From Minisyncoccota bacterium (lineage in GTDB: Bacteria; Patescibacteriota; Microgenomatia; UBA1400; UBA12028), in contig DNEP01000013.1 in the NCBI GenBank assembly GCA_003487265.1, positions 230,706-294,705 of the forward strand: DNA of 64,000 nt, read 5' to 3'. Below are positions 820 through 31,274 of this stretch, piece after piece. Numbering within the stretch: the first letter of the stretch is position 1; each line of letters begins with the position of its first letter. Under the pieces are notes generated by a model. That model had not been told where the DNA came from and made no database searches. It saw only the letters and a list, made by a program, of their open reading frames with translations. The translations under genes were made by a program, and so were the position numbers.

Positions 820-1794
820 CTAATTTCCCAACTTCCATCTCCGATCAAACATTTGTCTTTGAGCTTGTAACTCAGATCGCATTTGCGCAACTCTCTCTTT
901 CAAGATATTTTCATTGCCTTCAATTTCCGCTTGAAATCTACGAAATAGCAAATTGTATTCATACATATCATAGATAAGATCACCATATGGTTCGCTCATG
1001 GATCCATAAGTTTCATAATGTTTATTCACTAATTCTCTGATCTGTTCGAAAGGTAAATGGAACAGAGAAGGCACTTGTAATACACGCACTAAATCGTTAA
1101 CCACCTGTGCTTCAAAAACATATACTGTCTTCGTTCTCATGGAAACTTGTCCGCAACTTGTCTCAATTTCCTGAGCTTTTGCTTGGATTATTCCCTCATT
1201 CAATATTGTAGTTGCATCTGTGTCTAATCTATTTCTTTTTCTTACCTGATGACCAAGTTCGTGAATCACAACATCAAACAATTGTGCAGTTTCAGTATTA
1301 AGATCTTGTGAATCTTGAGGTATTAGTATTTCCCCAATATCACCTTTCATAGTATAAGCCAAGTCATCTCGGCGATTTCCGACAATATTTTGGATTCTTT
1401 GTTCAGGTAAAAAAAATAAACTATTTGGATCAAAAGAGCCAGCAAAAAGACCATGCTCCTTAATGTTTTCGTTTAATGCTTCATACGCACGTTGAACAAT
1501 TTCTATTCTTTCTGAGGTTAATGCCTCAACACGATACGTATGTAAAATAGGCACAATATCGGTTGCTACAAAATTATCTGGGATACCAATAGTCGACAAC
1601 ATATGAAGTACATATTCTTCTGGTAGAATTGTTTTCCAATCTCCTTGAAAATTTGGCGGTCGGTAAATTTGATTTTCTACTCCGTTTCCCCTAGATACCC
1701 ATTCATCATATAGCTTTATGACTTTCTCATAAAAACCATTTTCTCTTACAGTTACCTCTAGTACGGTGGAAAATGTTACAAGGGGTTTTTCCAT
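820..1794 (-). CDS. ImmA/IrrE-family (DUF955-like) zinc metallopeptidase-like protein
   Basis: HEXXH motif (VIHELGHQV) in the context typical of the ImmA/IrrE COG2856 family. The track ORF (820-1905) runs through the tRNA-Ser gene, so the start was moved to the internal ATG at 1794 (MEKPLVTF...). An XRE repressor gene sits nearby on the same strand. Confidence 0.6.
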   Translation of the reverse strand: MEKPLVTFSTVLEVTVRENGFYEKVIKLYDEWVSRGNGVENQIYRPPNFQGDWKTILPEEYVLHMLSTIGIPDNFVATDIVPILHTYRVEALTSERIEIVQRAYEALNENIKEHGLFAGSFDPNSLFFLPEQRIQNIVGNRRDDLAYTMKGDIGEILIPQDSQDLNTETAQLFDVVIHELGHQVRKRNRLDTDATTILNEGIIQAKAQEIETSCGQVSMRTKTVYVFEAQVVNDLVRVLQVPSLFHLPFEQIRELVNKHYETYGSMSEPYGDLIYDMYEYNLLFRRFQAEIEGNENILKERVAQMRSELQAQRQMFDRRWKLGN

Positions 1795-1839
1795 TTTTAT
1801 TTCTAAGATACATCTTCTAAAAACTTCAATCTTTATTCT

Positions 1840-1926
1840 TGGCGGAGGAGGCGGGATTCGGACCCGCGAGTGCTTTCGCACACACGCTTTCCAGGCGTGC
1901 GCCATGGACCACTAGGCGACTCCTCC
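1840..1926 (-). tRNA. tRNA-Ser (anticodon GGA), 87 nt with encoded CCA
   Basis: Hand-folded cloverleaf. Acceptor stem GGAGGAG/CTCCTCC with discriminator G and CCA. D-arm GCCTAGTGGTC, anticodon loop CU-GGA-AA, long variable arm (type II), T-loop GGTTCGAATCC-like (GGGTCCGAATCCC). Confidence 0.85.
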
Positions 1927-1962
1927 TACTTGGTACAAAAATGTAGAGGTATTGTATCGCAC

Positions 1963-2253
1963 TTATTTCTTTTTTGTTTTGATGATTTTTCGGATCTGCT
2001 CAAGTTCTCGACCGATTTGGTCAAGTTTTGCTTCTATGGAAGATTGATCGAGTCCGAGAAAGTACGTGATTGGATGTTGTGTTGTCAGACTGATTTTTTT
2101 CAACACGTCGATTGGAGGATCAATTCGTCCCACTTCATACGCCGAGATCGTTTTATCCGAAACCCCAATCGCATGCGCGAGTTGTTGTTGAGAAATGCGC
2201 AAACGCATTCTCGCTTCTTTGATCTTTTCTCCAATGGCGTCTTGTTTTTTCAT
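1963..2253 (-). CDS. XRE-family helix-turn-helix transcriptional regulator
   Basis: HTH_XRE signature (ISQQQLAHAIGVSDKTISAYEVGRIDPPIDVLKKI). Internal ATG at 2253 (MKKQDAIGEK) has a GGGGA-type RBS. Same strand as the ImmA-like peptidase, separated from it by tRNA-Ser. Confidence 0.8.
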   Translation of the reverse strand: MKKQDAIGEKIKEARMRLRISQQQLAHAIGVSDKTISAYEVGRIDPPIDVLKKISLTTQHPITYFLGLDQSSIEAKLDQIGRELEQIRKIIKTKKK

Positions 2254-2331
2254 ATCCCCACCCACATATTCGTGTTGACACTGATATCTATCGACTGTAG
2301 AGTAGATTCTATAGAGAATAGAAGATAAAAC

Positions 2332-2685
2332 ATGACCTATCCTCATCTCCTCTGCCTGTCTCAACATTCTACTATGCGTAGAGAATATCTGCAATTCGTA
2401 GAATCACTTTCGTGTGAAGTGAAAGTTTGTTCAACCATTGAAGAGGCGCTCGTGCAGTGCGTCGTCTCACTTCCCAACATTCTTATTCTTGATGATTCTT
2501 TTTCCGTATATGAAGTTTCTGTGTTAGTACGTGTCTTTCAAGAAAAAAAGGACTGGCAAACGGTATCGATGTTTGTCGTGGGAAATGTTGAAAAACACCT
2601 TTTTCCCAAGGAAACGGTTTTTGTCCAATCAATACACGAACTTGTAAACTCGTTGAAAGATGTGTTTGATACGTTGTATTCGTGA
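2332..2685 (+). CDS. Hypothetical protein, possibly a degenerate (pseudo-)receiver domain
   Basis: The ATG ORF fills the XRE-RadC gap and its stop overlaps the radC GTG start (GTGA coupling). The sequence resembles the REC-domain core (STIEEAL ... ILILDD ... SMFVVGN ... KH) but lacks the N-terminal acidic DD pair. Confidence 0.35.
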   Translation: MTYPHLLCLSQHSTMRREYLQFVESLSCEVKVCSTIEEALVQCVVSLPNILILDDSFSVYEVSVLVRVFQEKKDWQTVSMFVVGNVEKHLFPKETVFVQSIHELVNSLKDVFDTLYS

Positions 2686-3341
2686 ACCAACTCCAACGCC
2701 AATCTTCAGAAAAACCCAGAGAAAAACTCATTCGTGGGGGCGTTGAATCGCTCTCAACACAAGAACTACTCATGGTGTTGATTGGAACGGGTATTAAAAA
2801 CAAGTCCGTTCGGTCACTCGCGCAACAGCTCCTTCCCATCTTCCGTTCTGCAGAGGGCAAATCCCTTTCTTTTCAAGATTTCCGATCTATTCGGGGAATC
2901 GGTATGGCAAAATCATGTCTTTTTATCGCCGGTCAAGAATTATTTTATCGGCTCCAACAAAAAAAGGCGTTTTCGTTCCAATCTCCCGAGGCGGTGTTAA
3001 GTCAACTTCAAGATTTACGTTTTTCTACAAGAGAAAAAATGGTGTGTCTGTATTTGTCTGCACGGTATCGACTCGTTCATAAAGAAATCATCGCGGTAGG
3101 ATCGCTAAATCAAATCATCATTCAACCAAGAGATATTTTCACTCCCTCGAAAGGATTACCCATTGCGTGGGTGATCATTGCGCATAATCATCCGTCTGGC
3201 TCTTGTGAACCATCGCAAGATGACATCGCGTTCACTAAACGTGTTGCGGAAGCAGGGAAACTGCTTGGAATTGAGCTGCTCGATCACATTGTGGTAACTG
3301 AAAAAGAGCATCGATCATTAAAAAGTATGGGGATTTTATGA
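2682..3341 (+). CDS. radC: RadC-family JAMM/MPN+ domain protein
   Basis: C-terminal JAMM motif HNHPSG...S..D (IAHNHPSGSCEPSQDD) and an N-terminal HhH-like region (PREKLIRGGVESLSTQELLMVLIGTG). Apparent GTG start overlaps the upstream ORF's stop. Confidence 0.85.
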   Translation: MNQLQRQSSEKPREKLIRGGVESLSTQELLMVLIGTGIKNKSVRSLAQQLLPIFRSAEGKSLSFQDFRSIRGIGMAKSCLFIAGQELFYRLQQKKAFSFQSPEAVLSQLQDLRFSTREKMVCLYLSARYRLVHKEIIAVGSLNQIIIQPRDIFTPSKGLPIAWVIIAHNHPSGSCEPSQDDIAFTKRVAEAGKLLGIELLDHIVVTEKEHRSLKSMGIL

Positions 3342-3354
3342 AGAATGACATTGA

Positions 3355-4215
3355 TTACGCGTTGCGAAACTCCTCGAGAAGAGTGCGCTGTTTACGACTG
3401 ATTCTTTCGGGAATATCGATAATAATACGAACATAATGGTCGCCACGACTGGAAGAGCGGAGATGTTTAATGCCTCGTTCTCGTAGTCGAATCATTGTGT
3501 GTGATTGCGTTCCTGGACGAATCTTGAGTTCGAGTTTTTCATCAATCGTTTCAACTGTCACGACTCCACCTAAAATCGCGGTAATGAGATCGATATGCGC
3601 ATCGGCATAGATATCAGCGCCTTCTCGTTGAAATGTTGTATGAGGCTGAACATCGATCGTCACATCAAACTCGTCGAATCGAATACGCGTTCCATCATCG
3701 ACACCCGCGGGGATCTTAATCGAACGACGTTTTCCGTCAATCTCAACGGTTTTTTCAACACCTTTCACCGCTTCCATAAATGGAAGCGTCATGCTGTATC
3801 TTGGGCGACGTTGCTGACGCGAGGAAAACGGGTTTCCACCAAAAAAACTTTCAAAAATCTGAAAAGGATCGCCAAAATCTCCCGAAGAAGCTCCGCCGAA
3901 CGGGTTTCCTCCACCATACGAGTAGGTGTACGTGAACGGCCCCTGTTGCGCGCCACCGGCGAACGGATTTCCTCCCATGCCCGCAGAGGGATCAAATGCT
4001 GAATGACCAAATTGGTCATAGGTCTTTCTTTTTTCTTTATCACCGATTACTTGATACGCCTCGTTGATTTCTTTAAATTTTTCCTCTGCATCCGAAGCCT
4101 TGTTTCTGTCGGGATGGTATTGAAGCGCGAGTTTACGATAGGCAGCCTTAATCTCCGCGGGAGTCGCGGTTTTTGAAAGACCCAATATTTCGTAATAGTC
4201 GCGCTTCGTCGCCAT
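3355..4215 (-). CDS. dnaJ: DnaJ-like co-chaperone (J domain + C-terminal substrate-binding domains, no Zn-finger CxxCxGxG repeats; CbpA-type)
   Basis: J domain with HPD (KRDYYEILGLSKTATPAEIKAAYRKLALQYHPDRN), a G/F-rich linker, no cysteine repeats. ATG at 4215 has an AAGGA RBS. It is the last gene of the hrcA-grpE-dnaK operon. Confidence 0.85.
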   Translation of the reverse strand: MATKRDYYEILGLSKTATPAEIKAAYRKLALQYHPDRNKASDAEEKFKEINEAYQVIGDKEKRKTYDQFGHSAFDPSAGMGGNPFAGGAQQGPFTYTYSYGGGNPFGGASSGDFGDPFQIFESFFGGNPFSSRQQRRPRYSMTLPFMEAVKGVEKTVEIDGKRRSIKIPAGVDDGTRIRFDEFDVTIDVQPHTTFQREGADIYADAHIDLITAILGGVVTVETIDEKLELKIRPGTQSHTMIRLRERGIKHLRSSSRGDHYVRIIIDIPERISRKQRTLLEEFRNA

Positions 4216-4263
4216 ATATCCTTTTTTGCTCGTCAAAAAACAGTACTGTTTACCCTGCAGGAA

Positions 4264-6213
4264 TTATTCTGCGATCTCGCCTTCTTCAACAGGTCCATCG
4301 GTTTTTTTGGAAGACTGATCTTCTGTTTTTTCTGAAGACGATGTCGTGTCCGATGCATTTTCGGTTTTTGCCTGAGCATCTGCTCCTGCTTGCCCCGCTT
4401 TCGCCTGTGCTTCTTGAGCCTGACGCATCACTTCTCCGATTTTTTGAGCCGATTGATACGTCGATTCAATCGCTTTTTCAAGATCTTCTTTTGAAGACTC
4501 TGGTTTTTCTGCGAGTTCGCGCAATTTTTGCACGTTTTCTTCAATGGATTTTTTATCATTCTCATTGAGTTTGTCACCGTATTCCTTCAACTGCTTTTCG
4601 ATCTCGAACGCAACGCCTGTTGCTTTGTTTCGCGTCTCCACTGTTTCTTTTTTGATTTTATCTTCCGCAGCGAATTTTTCTGCTTCAGCCTTCATTCGCT
4701 CAACTTCCTCTTCGGAAATATTTGTGGAGTTTTGAATCGTGATCTTTTGTTCTTTCCCCGTCGTTTTTTCTTTTGCCGAGACGTGGAGAATTCCGTTTGA
4801 ATCGATATCAAATGTCACATCGACTTGAGGAATACCGCGTTGCGCGGGGGGAATACCGTCGAGAATAAATCGGCCGAGCGACTTGTTATCCGCCGCCATT
4901 TCGCGCTCACCTTGAAGCACGTTGATCTCCACCGAGGTTTGGTTATCCGCAGCAGTCGAGAAAACTTGCGATTTGCTGGTAGGAACGGTTGTGTTTCGCT
5001 GAATAAGAGCGGTGCGCACACCTCCAAGCGTTTCAAGTCCAAGCGTGAGTGGAGTAACATCTAGCAACACCACATCTTTCACATCGCCCGTAATCACACC
5101 CGCTTGAACTGCGGCTCCAACCGCCACCACTTCGTCGGGATTTACCCCCTTATGAGGTTCTTTCCCAAAGAATGCTTTCACGCGTTCTTGCACTTTCGGC
5201 ATACGCGTCATTCCGCCAACCAACACAACTTCGGAAATTTCCGATGCTTTGACTTTGGCATCGTCAAGCGCTTTTTGGACAGGAACAAACGTTTTTTCAA
5301 TCAGAGCATCGACAAGCTCCTCCAACTTTGATCGAGTAAGCGTCATTGTTAAATGGAGTGGCCCATTTGGTCCCTGCGCGATAAATGGCTGATTGATCTC
5401 TGTTTGCTGTGCAGAAGAAAGTTCAATCTTCGCTTTTTCGGCGGTGTCACGAATGCGCTGCAACGCCTGAGGGTCGGATTTTAAGTCGACACCGTTCTCT
5501 TTTTTAAACTCGGATGCGATGTAATCAATAATAACCGCATCAAAATCGTCCCCTCCTAAGAAGGTGTCTCCATTGGTAGACTTCACTTCGAACACTCCAC
5601 CACCAATCTCCAAGATCGAGATGTCAAACGTGCCTCCACCCAAATCGTAGACCGCGATCACACCTGACTCTTTTTTATCTAAACCGTACGCAAGCGCGGC
5701 AGCGGTGGGTTCATTCAAAATACGTTCCACTTTCAAACCAGCGATCTCTCCCGCTTGTTTGGTTGCCTGCCGTTGCGCATCATCAAAGTACGCAGGAACA
5801 GTAATCACCGCTGAATCAACTGTTTCTCCCAAATATGCTTCTGCATCTGTTTTCGCTTTTGCGAGAATTTTCGCGGAGATTTCTTGTGGCGTGTATTTCT
5901 TTTTGTTGATTTCCACCACGGCCATATCGTCTTTGCCTGCAACAATAGTGTACGCAACGCGTTCGATTGTTTTTTTGACTTGAGCATCGCTGATTTTGCG
6001 ACCCATCAATCGCTTCACAGACATCACTGTGTTCTTTGCGTTCAACACAGCCTGTCGTTTCGCGGATGTACCAACCAAGTTTTTAATTGGCTCAACAATC
6101 GAAGGGAAGGTGTTCGCACCTTCTGCGGTTGTAATAACAACGGGCTTTCCCTGCTCCATAACCGCAACTGCTGAGTTTGTTGTTCCTAAATCAATACCAA
6201 TGACCTTTGACAT
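4264..6213 (-). CDS. dnaK: Molecular chaperone DnaK (Hsp70)
   Basis: Canonical Hsp70 signatures ([32 protein letters not shown]) and a strong AGGAGGA RBS. 649 aa. Confidence 0.97.
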
Positions 6214-6226
6214 AGATCCTCCTATA

Positions 6227-6793
6227 TTATTCTGTTACTTTTTTTACGACATCTTCCAAAGCTCCGGTTCCAACCTCAACCTTCGCAGGTCGGAGCACGA
6301 GGTCATACATCATGTATCCTTTTTGTTGTACTCGAATAACCACATCTTTTTTTCCCTGTACTTGGGCAACTGCCTCCATACGGTCTGGGTCAAAAAGTTC
6401 CCCTACAATCTGCATTTCTTGTATCCCTTGAGACTCAAGTGATTGTGAAAACGATCGCGCGATCATCTCAATTCCCGAATCTTTTGTATGCTCAAGAGCT
6501 AAATATAAATGATCCAACGGCTCGAGAATCGCCAAAGCGAGTTCTTTTGAAGCCAACTTGATCATTTTCTCTTGCATTCCTTGTGTCCTGCGGCTCAAAT
6601 TTTGATAATCCGCAACCGTGCGTAGGTATTTTTGCTCCATCTCGTGTAACTGCGTTTTACACTCTTCATGTTGGTCTGCCAAAGCGTCATCTGAATTGAG
6701 TTTTGCATTTATGTCATCACTCAGATTTTCACTATCACGAAGTAAAGCATCATCTTGTTGTTGCATATCAGCAACCGTTTGATTGTTTGTCAT
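6227..6793 (-). CDS. grpE: Nucleotide exchange factor GrpE
   Basis: GrpE-like coiled-coil N-terminus and a C-terminal beta domain ([14 protein letters not shown]..., [13 protein letters not shown]). Sits in the conserved position between hrcA and dnaK. GAAAGGAA RBS. Confidence 0.9.
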
Positions 6794-6810
6794 ACATTCC
6801 TTTCACCACA

Positions 6811-7542
6811 TTACGATAAAGATGGATGAAACTCTTCGAGTAATCCATGCATGTATTCCAAAAATGGAATCATATACGCATAATCGATCCTACTTGATCC
6901 GATCACACCCAACATGCACCTCTGATCAGCACATTGAAATTCGGTAAACAAAATCCCCACAGGTTCGAGATATCGATTACCAAGATCTCCACCAAAAACC
7001 ATATGCACCATGTCGCCACCCCAATCCCGCAGAAAAATCGATTCCAACTGACGCGTTTCTTCGAGCAACTGAAAAACCGTTCTCGCAACATCCAAATCCT
7101 CGAACTCGGGAATCGAAAGTAAATGCGAATACCCCGAATGAAAGGCTTGGTGATCGGCGGTTACCGCAACTCCAACCGACTGCGCGCGTTCCGAAAGTAC
7201 ACGAGTCGCTTCGTGGAGCATGGAATCAAATTTGTGACGCGATTCCCACATCCTCTCCTTTACCGAAACCTCGTCCGCCACCGAAAGATCCTTCTTGTTC
7301 ATCAACTCCTGAACGTACAGTTTCAACGCCATTGGAGTAGGAACGCGTCCAGCTGAAGAGTGCGGTTGCTTCAAGTATCCTTGGTCTCCCAAGTACGCAA
7401 GTTCACTTCGAATCGTCGCGGGACTTACCCCAAGATTAAATTTGCGATCAATTGTGTCGGATCCAATCGGCTCAGCTGTTTTTAAGTATTCCTCAATCAC
7501 AGCTTTTAAGATTTGAATCTGGCGAGAAGTGAGATCAATCAT
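6811..7542 (-). CDS. hrcA: Heat-inducible transcription repressor HrcA (short form, 243 aa)
   Basis: N-terminal winged-helix typical of HrcA (LTSRQIQILKAVIEEYLKTAEPIGSDTI...ATIRSELAYLGDQGYLKQPHSSAGRVPT). It is the first gene of the dnaK operon and a CIRCE element lies directly upstream. Confidence 0.85.
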   Translation of the reverse strand: MIDLTSRQIQILKAVIEEYLKTAEPIGSDTIDRKFNLGVSPATIRSELAYLGDQGYLKQPHSSAGRVPTPMALKLYVQELMNKKDLSVADEVSVKERMWESRHKFDSMLHEATRVLSERAQSVGVAVTADHQAFHSGYSHLLSIPEFEDLDVARTVFQLLEETRQLESIFLRDWGGDMVHMVFGGDLGNRYLEPVGILFTEFQCADQRCMLGVIGSSRIDYAYMIPFLEYMHGLLEEFHPSLS

Positions 7543-7545
7543 AGA

Positions 7546-7572
7546 TTAGCAGAATGGTAACATGACTGCTAA
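7546..7572 (-). promoter_or_regulatory. CIRCE-like operator (TTAGCAGAA-N9-GACTGCTAA) upstream of hrcA
   Basis: 27-bp inverted repeat matching the CIRCE consensus TTAGCACTC-N9-GAGTGCTAA at 14 of 18 arm positions. It lies 4 nt upstream of the hrcA start codon. Confidence 0.55.
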
Positions 7573-7655
7573 ACCTCTGTCAAGCGCGGAGATTTTTCAA
7601 AACACGCGCGCTCAACATCTTGTCATTCTGTTCCTGCTCATGTCATACTTCATCA

Positions 7656-9062
7656 ATGATGAGACAGTATCACATCAAACGGTTAAAACGTGTTTTTCCA
7701 ATCGTCGTACTTATCTTTATATTGGCGATCACCGCATTCCAAGTGCCTGTCGTTCGTGAATTTTTCATTGGCGCTTCGGGTGTTGAAGCAAATATTTTTG
7801 TCGATCTTTCTGGTACATTGGGTCACATGCCACAACCGTGGAAAAATCTCGCACAGGGAGGAGAAGACCACGCGTGGACCGTTGCACAAGTTCAAAATGA
7901 GGTACAACATCTTCAACCTGAATATATTCGCATCGATCATTTGTATGATTTTTATGATCCTGTAACAATCGTCAACGGTCAACCTGTCTACTCTTGGGAA
8001 AAAGCAGACGCCGCAGTTCAAGCGATCCTCGCAACGGGCGCAAAACCGTATCTTTCACTTTCATATACCCCAACTCCGCTGATTCAGACAGACATTGTTG
8101 GTGAACCATCAGATTATTCGATGTATCAAAGGATTATTCGTGACACGATTCTTCATTATAGTAAAACACTTGCGATAGAGGATGTGATATACGAAATGTG
8201 GAACGAACCTGATCTTTTTGGTGGATGGAAAGTGTACGGTCCAAAAAACTATTTAAAATTGTACGAATACGCAGGCCGAGGAGCTCTTGAGGCGCGGACA
8301 GAAAACGCCCTTCCGTTTACTTTTGGAGGACCAGCAATCACAGCACTCTACAAAAATTGGGTGGATGCTCTTGTTAAGAAATCAATTGAACAAAACCTTC
8401 CACTCGATTTCATTTCTTGGCATCGATACACCACAGACGTTGATCAATACGAAAAAGACGCCCGAGATGTTCGAGAATGGCTTGACGCATATCCACAACT
8501 TCTCAATGTTGAGTTGCACATCACTGAATGGGGACATGACTCGAATAATCAAGCGGGATATGACACGCAATATGGCGCCGCACACACCGTTCTAGGGGGA
8601 CTTGCGATGATAGGAAAAGTTGACCGCGGTTTTGTGTTTGAAATTCAAGATGGAAAAGATCCAGCGGGGAATGCAAAATGGGGGCGATGGGGACTTCTCA
8701 CGCATTCTTCTGGAGGTGCGGAGAAAAAACCACGCTACAACGCGATACTTGAACTTAACCAACTTGAAGGAGAGTGGCTTCCTGTCGCAGGAAACGGGAG
8801 TTGGGTAAAGGCGGGGGCCAGTCAAGTTGGAGCGGAATATCGTATTTTGTTGGCGAACTTTGACGAAGCGGGAACGCACCGCGAAACGGTTCCCCTCACG
8901 CTCACGAACATCCCAGCGCAGACACTTCGAGTAAGGCAAAAATCAATCTCGGGGATTGTACAAGAATCCGAAGTCGCGACAACCGAAGCCGATATTCGGT
9001 TGGAGATTCCGATGGAGCCACTGAGTGTGGTAATGGTGACTATCACGGAGATTGTTGAATAA
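7656..9062 (+). CDS. Clan GH-A glycoside hydrolase (GH39/GH5-like) with N-terminal signal anchor
   Basis: Catalytic acid/base motif MWNEPD and nucleophile motif ITEWG typical of (beta/alpha)8 clan-A glycosidases. N-terminal basic stretch plus TM (KRLKRVFPIVVLIFILAITAF). The track start at 7620 is TTG; the first ATGs are at 7656/7659. Confidence 0.7.
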   Translation: MMRQYHIKRLKRVFPIVVLIFILAITAFQVPVVREFFIGASGVEANIFVDLSGTLGHMPQPWKNLAQGGEDHAWTVAQVQNEVQHLQPEYIRIDHLYDFYDPVTIVNGQPVYSWEKADAAVQAILATGAKPYLSLSYTPTPLIQTDIVGEPSDYSMYQRIIRDTILHYSKTLAIEDVIYEMWNEPDLFGGWKVYGPKNYLKLYEYAGRGALEARTENALPFTFGGPAITALYKNWVDALVKKSIEQNLPLDFISWHRYTTDVDQYEKDARDVREWLDAYPQLLNVELHITEWGHDSNNQAGYDTQYGAAHTVLGGLAMIGKVDRGFVFEIQDGKDPAGNAKWGRWGLLTHSSGGAEKKPRYNAILELNQLEGEWLPVAGNGSWVKAGASQVGAEYRILLANFDEAGTHRETVPLTLTNIPAQTLRVRQKSISGIVQESEVATTEADIRLEIPMEPLSVVMVTITEIVE

Positions 9063-10143
9063 TATCTCGAATCTCCCGTTCAAATCTCTCTTCTGAATAT
9101 TTTTGCGCCATTTTTTTGATCTTTTCATGATCCCATTGTATATTTTGTGATTCTTGAATCGCGTCGATCATGCTTTGCGTTTTGAAATCGTCAACAAACA
9201 GTCCGTTTTCACCTTCAACAACCGTCTCAAGGAAACCTCCCGATCGATGCACAATGGCGGGAGTTCCATACATCATCGCCTCAATTGGGATCATGCCAAA
9301 ATCTTCATCCTCTGCGGGGTAGATCACCGCACGCGCACCTGCATATAATTTTGCAAGCTCAAGATCAGAAACCGCGCCCAGAAACGAAACAGTCTTTCCC
9401 GCGCGCGCCTTCAACTCCTCAACGCTTTCACCAATTCCAACAACCTTCAACTTCACTCGTAGTTGTGTACACGCATCGATCACAAGATTGGGATGTTTAC
9501 TGTACACCACTCGTCCCACAAAAAGATAATAATCTTCTCGTTTTTGATCCACATCCAGCGATGAAATTGGTGGATAGATCACCACACTATCGCGTCGATA
9601 AAACTTTTGAATTCTTTTTTGCACTTCTTGTGAGTTCGCAATCATCACGGTTGGATTTTGCGCGGAATAATAATCAACAATGCGTAAAAAATGATTTGCA
9701 ATCTCGCCTAACACATGCATCCACTTTTTTTCTTTCCAGTTTGATTTTGTGGTGTATCCGTACAACGAGCGCGGGGGAGTATGACAGTAACACAGGTGCA
9801 TCGCGTCTGGGCGCATACGCACCGCTTTTGCCATATACATATTTGAGGAAGAAATCACAACGTCGTAGGCAAACAAATCCAACGAACGAAAAAAATTCGA
9901 AGCGAACACGCGCAATGGCGAGAAGAGCTTTTTGATGAAGGGAATCTTGGTTGCCCAAGTTTCACGTATATCCCAAGAAGAAAAACGCGTCCAATGTTTT
10001 CCCAACGCTTGCTTGTCAACAAACGCAACGTACACGGGCGCCTCAGGAAACATTTTGTGGAGTTTTTCCAACACCCGTTCGGCTCCACCATATTCGCGGA
10101 GATAATCGTGAACTAACGCGACTTTCATGTTTGAACGATTCAT
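9043..10143 (-). CDS. GT4-family glycosyltransferase
   Basis: GT-B fold family 4 C-terminal signature (EDFGMIPIEAMMYGTPAIV...GGFLETV..G..G). Its ATG overlaps the stop of the upstream exonuclease gene (ATGA). Confidence 0.85.
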   Translation of the reverse strand: MNRSNMKVALVHDYLREYGGAERVLEKLHKMFPEAPVYVAFVDKQALGKHWTRFSSWDIRETWATKIPFIKKLFSPLRVFASNFFRSLDLFAYDVVISSSNMYMAKAVRMRPDAMHLCYCHTPPRSLYGYTTKSNWKEKKWMHVLGEIANHFLRIVDYYSAQNPTVMIANSQEVQKRIQKFYRRDSVVIYPPISSLDVDQKREDYYLFVGRVVYSKHPNLVIDACTQLRVKLKVVGIGESVEELKARAGKTVSFLGAVSDLELAKLYAGARAVIYPAEDEDFGMIPIEAMMYGTPAIVHRSGGFLETVVEGENGLFVDDFKTQSMIDAIQESQNIQWDHEKIKKMAQKYSEERFEREIRDIIQQSP

Positions 10144-11096
10144 ACAAACAGCGCCTCCTGCACTCCAAGCTCAAACGCGTCTAAAGGAAGGAGAGGTAAT
10201 AATGTGCGAAAGCCAAGCTTTTCAAACATTGAAACGGCTTTATCTTTTTCATATCCCGAAACACGACAGGCTTCCAGATCAAATTGAAGTGGAACAGCGC
10301 AATCAATCGTCGCTAACTGCTGACTTAACTTTGCTGCCTCATAATCTTCGGACAGTAACTTAACCAAGCGAGGAGTAAGAACCTTTTTCTGCTCTGCGGT
10401 GAGCGAGGTTGGAGCGGTGAGTTTTTTATAGATCTCATCGACCGTTCCAAACGCTTTTATAAGCGAAGTAGCCGTTTTTTCTCCAACTCCTTTGACCCCA
10501 GGGATATTATCAGATGCATCTCCTGCGAGCGCTTTATAATCCACAATCTCATGAGGGCCAATTCCCATACGTTCCTCAACATCTGCCGAAGAATACTCGC
10601 GCGCTTCCTCGCGATGATGCGCGGGCATGTACACCGTCGTTTTTTCATCTCGAATCAGTTGATAGGCATCACGATCACCTGTGAGAATAATCGTGCGAAC
10701 AGTATTGTATTGCTCGTTTTGTGCGATTTTTTCTGAAATTGTTCCAATCACATCGTCTGCTTCATATCCCTCAACGCCAAAAATGGGAATGTTTAACGTT
10801 TCCACAACTTCGCGCACGCGACCAAGTTGAGAGATGAGATCGGTCGGCGTTTCTTTACGTTGTGCTTTATATCCCGCAAAGCTCGCATGACGAAAGGTGG
10901 GTTTTCCCATATCGAACGCCACCGCAATATATTCAGGGTGCAAATCTTTGATCACCTTCAACAGAATACGAGAAAACCCATACACCGCATTAACCAATTC
11001 GCCTTCTGGCGTTGTAAGCGGTGGAAACGCGTGGTACGCGCGGTACACAACCGCATGACCATCAACAACAACAAAAATGTCTTTATTCGAAAGCAT
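10140..11096 (-). CDS. 5'-3' exonuclease (FEN/PolI N-terminal domain family)
   Basis: PIN-like 5'-nuclease motifs (VVVDGHAVVYRAYHA, GYEADDVIGT) and an H3TH region (ASDNIPGVKGVGEKTA). Confidence 0.85.
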   Translation of the reverse strand: MLSNKDIFVVVDGHAVVYRAYHAFPPLTTPEGELVNAVYGFSRILLKVIKDLHPEYIAVAFDMGKPTFRHASFAGYKAQRKETPTDLISQLGRVREVVETLNIPIFGVEGYEADDVIGTISEKIAQNEQYNTVRTIILTGDRDAYQLIRDEKTTVYMPAHHREEAREYSSADVEERMGIGPHEIVDYKALAGDASDNIPGVKGVGEKTATSLIKAFGTVDEIYKKLTAPTSLTAEQKKVLTPRLVKLLSEDYEAAKLSQQLATIDCAVPLQFDLEACRVSGYEKDKAVSMFEKLGFRTLLPLLPLDAFELGVQEALFV

Positions 11097-11177
11097 GCAC
11101 GCATTGTAACAGGGAAAAATTTACAATTCCATTATTCGACGTGTTATGCAATTGCTATCACGTTCAGCTCTTTCACA

Positions 11178-11507
11178 TTATGCTCTGGCTGACAATTCAA
11201 ACCATCTTCGCACAGTATCTAGGCTAACCTGAAACTCATTTGCAATTAGTTCCATCTCGCCAGTAACGCTAGGAGTAATTTTTTTTGAAGAATACGCGAC
11301 AATTTTCTTACAAAGTTCTTCAATTTTTTTACGATACATCGAATCTAATCCCATCTCATTAATTTTAGCATATTCTGGAATTTGAAAAAAAGCCTTCTTA
11401 TAACCAGAAGTTACTAAATCTTGCATGACGAGCTGTCGAACTAATTTAGATTTAGACTCGGAAGCGTCTCCATCTCGTGAAAAAAAACTTTTGTCTGGAA
11501 AAGACAT
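11178..11507 (-). CDS. Hypothetical protein
   Basis: 109-aa ORF with an ATG start and no recognizable catalytic motif. The C-terminus (SLDTVRRWFELSA) is HTH-like. Confidence 0.4.
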   Translation of the reverse strand: MSFPDKSFFSRDGDASESKSKLVRQLVMQDLVTSGYKKAFFQIPEYAKINEMGLDSMYRKKIEELCKKIVAYSSKKITPSVTGEMELIANEFQVSLDTVRRWFELSARA

Positions 11508-11605
11508 ATAGATCCTTCGTTAGCGAATACTGCTCTTAGTAAATACTTTCCCCCTGTAAAAGTCAAGAAGTTAGGCATCAAGCAAAATTCTGTTATCATA
11601 CGTAT

Positions 11606-12025
11606 ATGTCCTGGCTACTTCCCGCAATTCTCTCTGCCCTATTTGCCTCACTTGTTACGATTCTCGCAAAAATTGGAATTAAAGGAGTTGACAGTAATCT
11701 CGCAACTCTTATTCGCACCCTAGTCATTCTTCCGTTCATCTTTTTTATTGTGCTTGCACAAGGCCACCTCAAAGAAATCGGCTCACTTTCAAAAACAACC
11801 TTGATCTTTTTGGTTCTTTCTGGACTCGCGACAGGATTATCTTGGCTTTTCTACTTTCGCGCGCTACAGATCGGCGACGTTCATAAAGTTGTACCCATCG
11901 ATAAATTGAGTTTCGTGTTTTCGATTCTTTTGGGTGTGCTTGTTTTCCACGAAAAAATCAGCGCATATGGAATCTTCGGAATAGCCTTGCTCGTTTTGGG
12001 AACGCTACTTGTCGTTTTCGTTTGA
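11606..12025 (+). CDS. EamA-like small (4-TM) DMT-superfamily transporter
   Basis: 139 aa, four hydrophobic helices, EamA/DUF6-type sequence (ILAKIGIKGVDSNLATLIRTLVILPF...). Confidence 0.7.
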   Translation: MSWLLPAILSALFASLVTILAKIGIKGVDSNLATLIRTLVILPFIFFIVLAQGHLKEIGSLSKTTLIFLVLSGLATGLSWLFYFRALQIGDVHKVVPIDKLSFVFSILLGVLVFHEKISAYGIFGIALLVLGTLLVVFV

Positions 12026-12475
12026 TTTTTTTGTAGCAGAATTTTCTGTAGCAGATTGAATCATGTGATCGTTCTTTTTGTTCAACATCGCAACACTTTG
12101 TTCCAACCGATCAATGCGTTCGAATAAGCGAAACCACAAATATTCTTCTTGTCGCTTACTCATTGTGATTCCAATAATTCCAATGATCAATCCAAACATC
12201 ACCACACCACTAATCTCCAGAATTCCACCAAGAATGCGCCCCGCGGTGGTGATCGGGAAAAAATCGCCGTACCCAACGCCTGTGATTGTGGTCACCGTCC
12301 ACCACAAACTTTGCTCGAGTGTCTGGATGCGCGCGGAAGGATTGGATGACTCAACAATTAAAATCAACACAGAAATCAACAGCGATAATCCCAATAGCAT
12401 CAAAAGCGTATTTCGAAACGAGCGGTGATTAATAAGTCGATACGAAAACGTGTGATGATTACTCGCGTGATTCAT
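12005..12475 (-). CDS. Potassium channel protein (2-TM pore, KcsA-like)
   Basis: K+ selectivity-filter signature TGVGYGD, flanked by two TM helices. Confidence 0.8.
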   Translation of the reverse strand: MNHASNHHTFSYRLINHRSFRNTLLMLLGLSLLISVLILIVESSNPSARIQTLEQSLWWTVTTITGVGYGDFFPITTAGRILGGILEISGVVMFGLIIGIIGITMSKRQEEYLWFRLFERIDRLEQSVAMLNKKNDHMIQSATENSATKKSNENDK

Positions 12476-30071: not shown

Positions 30072-30173
30072 ACTACACACTGTACACTTACTTGTAGTAG
30101 TTGTCTATAGACAACTTGTTCGAGTACTGCTCGTCAAAACACAAAAAGAAAACGATGATCTATAATACGCCTC

Positions 30174-31274
30174 ATGTTTTTAGAATCTTCATCCGATTTT
30201 ATTCCACCGTATACCTCTGAACTCGGATTGTTGTACGACAGTTATCGCTCGCGCTTAGAGAAGCTTCTTGGAGGATCCATTACTGGCCAACTAATCTCAC
30301 TCCCTCATTTCTCCGCACGAAACGAGTCCAATCGAGCAATACGTGTTCGCACCAGAGAGCAAATTGACTTCGAAAAATATACAGCGGTTTGTTTTTGCGA
30401 TCACGACGACACACTCGAACGATATTCGCCGCGTAAAGAATCATATGTTCAAGAGTTATGTCCAATGATACCCTCAGGAGATCGCGACGCATGTTCCACC
30501 ACACTACGCATACTCAACGCTGTGTGTCGCATACGTCCAATCACGGGGAAGGGACCGGATCGATACTCCCCGCTTCTTGAGATGATCGCGTGTAGCACAT
30601 TACTCGACTCACAAATATCTGCGTTGAAATTACAGAAGATATCAGATGTGCAATCGGCAAAAGAATTTATCATTCAAACCGTTCTCCCTCAATTTGCGGG
30701 AATGCTTGAATACAACGAACGTGGATTTTTTCGAGAAGTAAAACATCAAGCATTGGCAATCCAATGGGATACAAAACCATCTCGTGTAGCCAAGATCGTA
30801 TGGGACACATATCGCAAACACATGACGCAATCAACAATACCAGATCAGGAACTTGCAGGACTCAATATCGATCCAGCTATTTACTGGATTATCACCACGT
30901 ATGGAGAAATTGGATTTCAACCTGAAAAAGTGATAAACGCATTAGAATATCTCCAAACTCATTCTTATCGCATGCCAAACGAGCTTCTTTTTTTGCTTCG
31001 AGGAACAAAAGAGCCAGTTGTTTCACATGTACTCCAATCTTTTCCTGAAACCATTCCCGTACTCGCGATTGATGATCGTCTTGACCAACTAGAGCAATAT
31101 CGAACGAATCCCCGAATCGTTCCAATTCAGGCGAAACGCGAGATCCCATTTCAAACGAGAAATGATGCGCAACCCGATCATTCTCTTTTCACATATCCTG
31201 TTATTCAAATGGATCAAGGAAACTTCAATGAAAAATTAGTGAAAATCGTTTCTTCACTCAGTGCATCCACATAG
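30174..31274 (+). CDS. Hypothetical protein with HAD-hydrolase-like motifs
   Basis: Possible HAD motif I (FCDHDDTL = DxDxT), motif III K (GTKEP) and motif IV (VLAIDDR). A TATAAT box lies 7 nt upstream of the ATG. Confidence 0.4.
   Translation: MFLESSSDFIPPYTSELGLLYDSYRSRLEKLLGGSITGQLISLPHFSARNESNRAIRVRTREQIDFEKYTAVCFCDHDDTLERYSPRKESYVQELCPMIPSGDRDACSTTLRILNAVCRIRPITGKGPDRYSPLLEMIACSTLLDSQISALKLQKISDVQSAKEFIIQTVLPQFAGMLEYNERGFFREVKHQALAIQWDTKPSRVAKIVWDTYRKHMTQSTIPDQELAGLNIDPAIYWIITTYGEIGFQPEKVINALEYLQTHSYRMPNELLFLLRGTKEPVVSHVLQSFPETIPVLAIDDRLDQLEQYRTNPRIVPIQAKREIPFQTRNDAQPDHSLFTYPVIQMDQGNFNEKLVKIVSSLSAST

Follow-up and report, generated by a model that had tools for sequence, protein, structure and literature searches.

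An unclassified gluzincin-type peptidase gene beside tRNA-Ser, an XRE regulator and radC in an uncultured Microgenomates bacterium

In the ImmA-ImmR, IrrE-DdrO and Rir-Crh systems (MEROPS M78, COG2856, PF06114), a zinc peptidase is partnered by a repressor of the XRE family. ImmA and Rir are 122–169 aa long, and IrrE consists of a peptidase and a GAF domain (PMC12828697). In TP-J34, where crh and rir form a true pair, 6 nt lie between the repressor gene and the abutting gene of the peptidase. Here we analyzed a locus of comparable appearance in a 64,000-nt stretch of DNA (the window) from an uncultured groundwater bacterium of the Microgenomates/Pacebacteria (CPR). A preliminary description had listed five genes, for a peptidase, tRNA-Ser, an XRE regulator, a 117-aa open reading frame (ORF) and RadC, and all five are present where it had placed them.

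The 2.5-kb block is flanked by the housekeeping genes dnaJ, dnaK, grpE, hrcA, nadE, nadD, dinB and metK. The same gene arrangement is found on contigs from several samples, and the genome occurs in samples of the Rifle aquifer; the retrieved contigs carrying the block are all at least 99.7% identical and therefore represent one and the same population. No close relative came up when genomes and metagenomes were scanned. With RadC as bait, the genome collection yielded only an Aquifex locus (37% identity) and a Ruminococcus locus (27%), leaving no relatives for a comparison of synteny.

The zinc peptidase and its family

The longest ORF of the peptidase gene (820–1905, reverse strand; 361 aa, containing VIHELGHQV) does run over the tRNA gene, as first described, but the true start is ATG 1794, giving a protein of 324 aa (820–1794, reverse strand). 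Public gene calls concur, and the conserved part of the family alignment begins around residue 21. Because both fit a start at ATG 1794, the 361-aa frame through the tRNA is a longest-ORF artefact.

The protein, predicted to be cytoplasmic, has the zincin fold with an HEXXH helix and a Glu-bearing helix that defines gluzincins (clan MA(E)). HELGH occupies residues 178–182, and the third ligand, Glu200, lies 18 residues past the second histidine in an M1-like 'NEG' context. In an alignment of 23 family sequences, H178, E179, H182 and E200 are invariant. H178, H182 and E200 would bind the zinc and E179 would act as the catalytic base; we infer zinc binding and peptidase activity from these invariant catalytic residues only. 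We suggest that it works on its own in the cytoplasm as a zinc metallopeptidase and belongs to a rare and unclassified gluzincin family. In the protein, a thermolysin/M1-like catalytic core would be preceded by an extra helical module. This module amounts to about 90 aa, instead of the uncharacterized N-terminal domain of about 180 aa proposed earlier.

The family is small and patchy in distribution, and its two named members are both CPR/Patescibacteria (Microgenomates, Dojkabacteria). No model in Pfam (E ≤ 1), NCBIfam, PHROG or PADLOC matched the 324-aa protein, PF06114 (M78) included. The Pfam M78 cut-off of 22 bits is passed by one of the 23 family members, the most divergent one (P0025, 23.0 bits), and when the family was compared by hhalign with Rir, an M78 protein, 31 columns around the HELGH helix aligned with a probability of 45%. 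The family may thus be very distantly akin to ImmA/IrrE. Searching the PDB with a sequence profile of the family, and running phmmer on P0025, returned nothing credible, with IrrE absent, and Foldseek with the peptidase model found zero matches in the PDB at E ≤ 0.001. Searching proteins by word index with the profile of the family contributed a single further sequence. For scans of loci, the alignment of 23 sequences proved too divergent; the 9-sequence version used for these found one metagenome contig (1.5 kb) and no viral contig.

Thermolysin-like and M1 gluzincins (clan MA(E): aminopeptidase N, ERAP1, LTA4 hydrolase) share only 10–15% identity with the 324-aa protein. Unlike M1 enzymes, it lacks a GXMEN exopeptidase motif in the strand ahead of the active-site helix, an N-terminal beta domain and a C-terminal ARM-like domain. 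Comparison with small zincins covered YbeY, SprT/Spartan, ArdC / MPTase-PolyVal and the minigluzincins (selecase). The third ligand of YbeY and SprT is a histidine (HxxxHxxxxxH and HExxHxxxxxH, respectively), whereas in this family it is the invariant Glu, and the C-terminal helical half is much larger than in the small zincins.

The XRE regulator and the divergent gene pair

The XRE-family HTH regulator (1963–2253, reverse strand) is 96 aa long, with a C-terminal helix and a match to Pfam HTH_3 over residues 11–57 (6e-13). Its open frame extends to 2394 (1963–2394), and public gene calls use an upstream start at 2367, which gives 134 aa and would overlap the 117-aa ORF. The start is most likely at MKKQ (2253), since the HTH begins at residue 7. 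NCBIfam, PHROGs and PADLOC gave generic XRE matches only, all under the family cut-offs, and neither the XRE protein nor the 117-aa ORF gave a specific viral match.

A divergent intergenic region of 78 nt (2254–2331) separates this gene from the pair on the forward strand. The promoter scan identified a promoter-like TTGACA-17-TAGAGT at 2275–2303 on the forward strand, facing the 117-aa/RadC pair. On reading the sequence we noted a palindrome, GTGTtgACAC (2272–2281), that covers the -35 hexamer; TCTATAGA is located at 2308–2315. Both are possible XRE operators. As an operator, however, the palindrome TCTATAGA did not stand up to counting: the window has two copies where 0.32 are expected, a number that 3 of 100 shuffles also reach and that is therefore not significant. 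The XRE protein would be a small dimeric repressor that most likely regulates its own gene and the promoter in the 78-nt region, and with it, presumably, the divergent 117-aa/RadC operon.

That promoter would drive two genes, a 117-aa orphan of flavodoxin-like fold, possibly a degenerate receiver, and a conserved, housekeeping RadC. The 117-aa ORF (2332–2685, forward strand) and the 219-aa RadC gene (2682–3341, forward strand) overlap in GTGA, with the GTG start of RadC at 2682–2684 and the TGA stop of the ORF at 2683–2685, confirming by sequence reading the translational coupling described before.

RadC matches PF20582 (2e-18; 66.8 bits, cut-off 27.1), PF04002 (7e-33; 113.5 bits, cut-off 22.1), the PRK00024 equivalog NF000642 of NCBIfam (188 bits, cut-off 180) and TIGR00608 (183.8 bits, cut-off 133.85), and was correctly recognized as a JAMM/JAB protein. 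Like canonical RadC (YsxA/YicR; PRK00024, TIGR00608), it combines a UPF0758 HhH N-domain with a JAB domain and an intact HNHPSG...SQDD; in the translation, the intact JAB metal motif (E ... HxH ... S..D) reads 'REKMV ... AHNHPSGSCEPSQDD'. The HhH N-domain is typical of the chromosomal form of RadC (Iyer et al., 2011; PMC3239186). Judged by its full-length HhH and JAB architecture and equivalog score, this RadC is the canonical chromosomal type and not the short mobile-element form; RadC-like JAMM proteins had been mentioned as recurrent cargo of mobile elements. Unlike canonical radC loci, the gene is overlapped upstream by an orphan ORF and stands tail-to-tail with dnaJ. The Aquifex radC lies between ubiD-like and uvrA genes, without a small partner ORF.

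The 117-aa ORF had been likened to a receiver domain that lost its acidic pocket. A low-confidence model predicts a (beta-alpha)5 fold, but receiver and B12-binding domains match it equally well, and no Pfam family was matched at E ≤ 1, neither Response_reg nor B12-binding. The sole trace of a receiver (REC) profile is a match to NCBIfam LuxO (E = 0.058) over the LuxO receiver region. The phosphorylation residues of receiver domains are an acidic pair (DD) following strand 1, an Asp following strand 3, Thr/Ser following strand 4 and Lys following strand 5. With the register inferred from predicted secondary structure, the ORF keeps only D54/D55 behind strand 3; behind strands 1, 4 and 5 it has S10-Q11, V83/G84 and Q99. 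Cobalamin-binding Rossmann-like domains carry a DxHxxG motif, which the ORF lacks, reading SQHSTM instead. Because the predicted fold fits both domain types alike, 'pseudo-receiver' is plausible but unproven, an interpretation and not an observation.

A different explanation is that the 117-aa ORF is non-coding, a long leader of RadC, and that the receiver-like model is an artefact of single-sequence prediction. Identical copies are its only homologues among 5.8e9 proteins, which together with the missing Pfam match, the pLDDT of 43–61 in four of five AF2 models and a codon score of 0.051, 2.4 sd under the mean of real genes, would fit such a leader. However, the frame is the best of six and scores above all wrong-frame control chunks (maximum 0.038). 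Its stop codon runs into the start of RadC, 29 nt upstream there is a promoter-like site, and public callers annotate a gene here, but of 103 aa. We consider a non-coding leader unlikely. The 117-aa protein may interact with RadC; if so, their coupling could give a handle on RadC.

Pairing of the XRE and peptidase genes

As in ImmA/IrrE loci, an HEXXH zincin with a Glu ligand is encoded just 3' of a small XRE-family gene on the same strand; the tRNA-Ser(GGA) gene lies between the two, as the preliminary description had claimed. HEXXH with a downstream Glu ligand does not discriminate for M78, since it is common to all gluzincins. The label 'ImmA/IrrE-type' holds as far as an HEXXH zinc-peptidase-like protein is concerned but not for membership in M78, and is an interpretation and not an observation. 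Unlike ImmA/IrrE, the 324-aa protein has no PF06114 match and carries extra N- and C-terminal helices, the pair is split by a tRNA gene, the adjacency is not kept in the peptidase family, and the locus has no mobile-element or prophage context.

The XRE and peptidase genes are 168 nt apart, and neither a promoter nor a terminator was recognizable between them by promoter scan and RNA folding; the folded junction contains the tRNA alone (z = -1.6). A functional link is therefore possible. One could envisage a functional analogue of ImmA/IrrE-XRE, serving this CPR bacterium as a damage switch of the IrrE/DdrO kind, in which a non-M78 gluzincin cleaves XRE on some signal and derepresses the 117-aa/RadC operon. 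Besides the spacing of 168 nt on one strand with no terminator seen in it, it would be consistent with the C-terminal helix of XRE, which could be a cleavable dimerization element, with RadC, a repair-associated protein, in the divergent operon, and with the distant family member just over the M78 threshold. The peptidase of the window, however, has no M78 match itself, its Glu ligand has the M1-like spacing and context, and a tRNA gene intervenes. Furthermore, no XRE/HTH gene is adjacent in any of 11 other family contexts, where the neighbors differ in every case, whereas the true pair of TP-J34 has its 6-nt gap. The XRE-peptidase adjacency is found only here, which also speaks against the proposed ImmA/XRE-controlled module. 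We regard such an analogue as very unlikely. The full scheme, in which a CPR-restricted gluzincin is co-transcribed with XRE and tRNA-Ser, cleaves XRE and switches on a degenerate receiver-fold/RadC operon, is highly improbable. One of these contexts (L023) seemed to share nadD as a neighbor, but this did not hold: the CTP_transf_like proteins of the two loci are not orthologous and have only a nucleotidyltransferase motif of 29 residues in common (E 7e-4).

The tRNA gene and the genomic setting

The tRNA-Ser(GGA) gene (1840–1926, reverse strand; CCA encoded) was identified with ARAGORN and Rfam RF00005 (54.4 bits). It starts 36 nt past the XRE stop and ends 45 nt ahead of the peptidase start. 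Because these gaps are short and no terminator is visible, this ordinary gene may be co-transcribed with its neighbors, XRE and the peptidase, and RNase P/Z would cut it out.

In the peptidase family, a tRNA-Ser gene is beside the peptidase gene in the window and in one other context (L015); in a third (L001) it lies 3.2 kb upstream. The anticodons differ (GGA, CGA, GCT). Adjacency to tRNA-Ser was weighed as a family trait and left as a minor observation; it is absent from 8 other DNA contexts besides L015 and L001.

The block had also been viewed as the edge of an integrated element. In such a scenario the block would be the edge or remnant of an island that had inserted at the tRNA-Ser 3' end, with the peptidase, and perhaps genes beyond, as cargo. 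The peptidase start 45 nt past the tRNA 3' end fits this, as do the 40%-identical homologue in L015, 70 nt past a tRNA-Ser within a tRNA cluster, and the patchy distribution of the family. GC content is also lower locally, 37–38% over the window's first 2 kb, while the other 1-kb blocks have 37–48%, mostly >40%. Codon scores fall below average for the peptidase, for RadC and for the 117-aa ORF; together with the low GC, these would fit accessory or recently acquired genes and count against the explanation we favor. However, no integrase, recombinase or transposase (Pfam families) was found within 8 kb on either side of the block. With up to 3 mismatches allowed, 17 kb contain the 26-nt 3' end of the tRNA a single time, with no repeat in the 9 kb downstream, and no long direct repeats were found. 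Downstream of the peptidase are genes for a membrane protein and an exchanger, nadE and nadD. IMG/VR viral contigs yielded no relative of the peptidase family, and in 9 other DNA contexts no tRNA is beside the peptidase gene. An island edge is very improbable.

The identities of the genes, their conserved motifs, the fold class, the lack of a conserved linkage and the lack of mobile-element marks were established here. The block probably consists of small transcription units of independent function, packed closely on a streamlined CPR chromosome, and would be neither an ImmA/XRE switch nor a mobile element. As the evidence points to ordinary neighboring genes, the block matters little as a module. 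Its one unusual item is the rare unclassified zinc-peptidase family.

HEXXH next to XRE is by itself insufficient for calling an ImmA/IrrE switch. If the gluzincin did act on XRE, the two would amount to a protease/repressor damage switch that arose independently in a bacterium whose regulatory repertoire is minimal. The rare zinc-peptidase family that the 324-aa protein defines has no relative in Pfam, NCBIfam or the PDB, and the confident structural model of the protein could seed a definition of the family.

Family and predicted structure of the HEXXH protein

All five features named in the preliminary description were found by the ORF list, the tRNA and Rfam searches and reading of the sequence, including the GTGA overlap. 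On the minus strand lie an ORF containing VIHELGHQV (820–1905), a tRNA-Ser(GGA) gene (1840–1926) and an HTH ORF of the XRE type (1963–2394). On the plus strand, a 117-residue ORF (2332–2685) runs into a 219-residue RadC ORF (2682–3341), with GTG at 2682–2684 and TGA at 2683–2685. The 361-residue peptidase ORF overrunning the tRNA exists as described, but it is a mere longest-ORF extension. The gene itself is placed at the ATG at 1794, giving 324 residues, because public gene calls use this start and conservation in the family alignment begins near residue 21. A hypothetical protein of ‘Microgenomates group bacterium GW2011_GWF2_45_18’ matches it at 100% identity. Together with the Pacebacteria copy of the 117-residue ORF described below, this assigns the window to an uncultured CPR/Patescibacteria genome.

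The ImmA/IrrE-type label (M78, PF06114) originally given to this protein did not hold. The window protein fell outside M78 in the family test, with no Peptidase_M78 match in Pfam at E ≤ 1; its only Pfam trace was a sub-threshold MPTase-PolyVal match (E = 0.023), and NCBIfam, PHROGs and PADLOC gave none. A word-index search of 5.8 billion proteins returned only the protein itself and one homologue of 54% identity. This pair then served as the query against 1.84 billion representatives in an exhaustive HMMER search, in which 29 proteins reached E ≤ 1e-3 and 14 of these E ≤ 1e-30. The family is rare, and its two named members come from Microgenomates and Dojkabacteria. Across a 23-sequence alignment H178, E179, H182, R185 and E200 are invariant, and G70, R133, A146, G201, Q204, Y225, L235 and W320 nearly so. 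Judged from sequence, the family signature is that of a gluzincin: HEXXH, then a Glu 18 residues past the second His. This Glu sits in an ‘(N/E)EGI(I/V)Q’ context, which resembles the ‘WLNEGFA’ motif of M1. Compared with Pfam one by one, the 23 members gave weak matches to MPTase-PolyVal (four), M1 (two) and M78 (one). The M78 match belongs to the most divergent member, P0025, exceeds the cut-off of 22 with a score of 23.0 bits and spans the strand, the HEXXH and the Glu region. An hhalign comparison of the family with Rir, a genuine M78 peptidase of phage TP-J34, aligned 31 columns around ‘EILIP...HELGH’ at 45% probability, and PDB sequence-profile searches with the family gave nothing significant. 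A very remote kinship with M78 is conceivable; we conclude that the protein belongs to a new, small gluzincin family.

The AlphaFold2 model built from the 23-sequence alignment is confident (pLDDT 89.2, pTM 0.86). It contains a disordered part (residues 1–17), three helices (20–90), a backing helix (94–114), a small three-stranded sheet (126–129, 147–148 and 156–159), the active-site helix (169–187), the Glu helix (196–213) and further helices up to residue 319. The uncharacterized N-terminal domain, put earlier at about 180 residues, shrinks in the model to an extra part of about 90 residues of helices. Comparison with known structures gave scores of 8.5 for M30 lugdulysin, 8.3 for LTA4 hydrolase, 7.8 for Spartan, 7.5 for selecase, 7.0 for ArdC and 6.9 for thermolysin; IrrE was absent from the top 60, and Foldseek returned no significant match. 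The sequence as read shows neither a signal peptide nor a membrane segment, which points to a probable cytoplasmic location.

Neighbourhood of the peptidase and XRE genes

COG2856/XRE pairs have been described as recurrent (PMC12828697). In true repressor/peptidase pairs the genes abut, those for Crh and Rir in TP-J34 being 6 nt apart, whereas the XRE and peptidase genes in the window are 168 nt apart with the tRNA gene between them. Eleven other family contexts were inspected, and in none (0/11) does an HTH gene adjoin the peptidase gene. The neighbours also differ: a radical-SAM gene and a gap of about 1 kb before the peptidase, with OmdA and an M14 peptidase after it (L001, P0002); a tRNA cluster (L015, P0004); recR, tmk, DHFR and thyA (L023, P0013); small genes of no known function (L024, P0014); and an FHA-domain gene after the peptidase (P0023 contig). 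L016–L022 are short contigs. Gene order around the peptidase is thus not conserved in the family, and an adjoining XRE gene is peculiar to the window genome. With these contexts and the intervening tRNA, the proposed ImmA/XRE-controlled module is not supported; despite the marginal M78 match of P0025, it is very unlikely that the peptidase is a functional ImmA analogue.

The nearest HTH gene in the other contexts is in an XRE and reverse-transcriptase pair 1.2 kb from the L024 peptidase, separated from it by two genes, one on the opposite strand. That region (6384–9473 and 9772–12123) encodes a 92-residue XRE, a reverse transcriptase (RVT_1, 292 residues) and a 657-residue protein, followed by another XRE and a serine recombinase; its content resembles that of a retron/DRT-type defence or mobile region, and it does not adjoin the peptidase. 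L017 and L020, which carry two distant family members, share a conserved, all-helical upstream protein of about 110 residues (29% identity, E = 4e-15; 190–537 and 378–710), whose gene overlaps the peptidase gene or lies 4 nt from it. It has no Pfam family, is missing from the window and could serve this subfamily as a partner or an inhibitor. In L001, the roughly 1 kb upstream of the peptidase (6990–8000) holds no ORF of at least 70 residues, tRNA or Rfam match, an uncommon feature in a compact CPR genome.

The three closest family members each have a same-strand tRNA-Ser upstream. In the window, Ser(GGA) lies 45 nt upstream of the peptidase gene (820–1794); in L015 (2075–3485), Arg(GCG)-Ser(CGA) precedes the gene by 70 nt and Arg(CCG) closely follows it; in L001, Ser(GCT) (4711–4802) lies 3.2 kb upstream. 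In more distant members no tRNA lies close to the gene. The pattern may reflect ancestral synteny, a landing site or chance. The minus strand showed no sigma-70-like promoter and no terminator in the XRE-tRNA-peptidase gaps, so co-transcription of the three genes is possible.

The 96-residue XRE protein (1963–2253) matches Pfam HTH_3 (6e-13); its matches in NCBIfam, PHROGs and PADLOC are confined to generic models for regulators and antitoxins, each scoring far under the cut-off. Counted from a start at MKKQ (2253), the divergent region measures 78 nt and holds a promoter-like TTGACA-17-TAGAGT (2275–2303, plus strand), whose -35 hexamer is overlain by the palindrome GTGTtgACAC. Because small XRE proteins usually behave in this way, we infer that this one may repress the divergent promoter and its own. 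The region also contains the palindrome TCTATAGA (2308–2315), present twice in the window against 0.32 expected, which is not significant; the other copy (30104–30111) lies about 63 nt upstream of an ORF at 30174–31274 (plus strand).

The 117-residue ORF and RadC

The 117-residue ORF has an identical copy in ‘Candidatus Pacebacteria bacterium RIFOXYB1_FULL_44_10’; no homologue beyond identical copies and no Pfam match were found. By codon-usage log-odds trained on 27 long window ORFs, its frame is the best of six (0.051). This value exceeds all 430 wrong-frame control chunks (maximum 0.038) and lies at the very bottom of the 86 true-frame chunks (mean 0.267, s.d. 0.089, minimum 0.042), which makes the ORF a probable, if atypical, coding sequence; that it is a non-coding leader is unlikely. 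Its only profile trace is NCBIfam LuxO (E = 0.058), over the receiver region. With predicted strand ends as the register, the Asp after b3 (D54/D55 in ‘PNILILDD’) is the only receiver residue retained; the other receiver sites read S10-Q11, V83/G84 and Q99. At the B12-binding DxHxxG motif the sequence is SQHSTM. The name ‘pseudo-receiver’ is thus fair though unproven, and ‘flavodoxin-like orphan’ is the safe one for the predicted fold. The fold requires the ATG at 2332; the public 103-residue call would drop strand 1.

The RadC forms that recur on mobile elements are short and carry the JAB domain alone. The window protein has a UPF0758 HhH N-domain and a RadC JAB domain (Pfam), an intact ‘HNHPSG...SQDD’ motif and scores above the NCBIfam cut-offs (equivalog 188 versus 180 bits, subfamily 183.8 versus 133.85 bits). 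Iyer et al. (2011; PMC3239186) describe the HhH-fused architecture from several of the major lineages of bacteria. RadC is convergent with dnaJ, their stop codons 13 nt apart, and a complete hrcA-grpE-dnaK-dnaJ heat-shock operon (3355–7542, minus strand) lies tail-to-tail with it. No terminator-like hairpin was reported at this junction in a scan up to 3600.

Evidence on a mobile origin

The block had also been read as a possible edge of an integrated element. Called genes within 8 kb are GH39, hrcA, grpE, dnaK and dnaJ on one side and a 529-residue membrane protein, a Na/Ca exchanger, nadE, nadD, two unknown genes, dinB and metK on the other; none is a recombinase. The 26-nt tRNA 3' end occurs once in 17 kb at ≤3 mismatches, and no long direct repeats were found. 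IMG/VR viral contigs yielded no relative of the gluzincin family, and the 117-residue ORF and XRE had no specific viral match. These results argue against an element edge. The first 2 kb of the window have 37–38% GC, against 37–48% (mostly >40%) in other 1-kb blocks, and together with somewhat low codon-usage scores this weakly favours acquisition; that the block is a remnant of a tRNA-Ser island is nonetheless highly improbable. Comparably low-GC stretches occur at 26–27 kb and 34–37 kb. The same arrangement is present on contigs from several samples at identities of at least 99.7%, so these contigs are one population; scans of the genome collection and of metagenomes returned no close relative.

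A unifying ImmA/XRE-controlled or mobile-module interpretation is not supported. The block is likely to consist of four small units, independent of one another and packed into a compact genome, and the only new element in it is the rare, unclassified gluzincin family.
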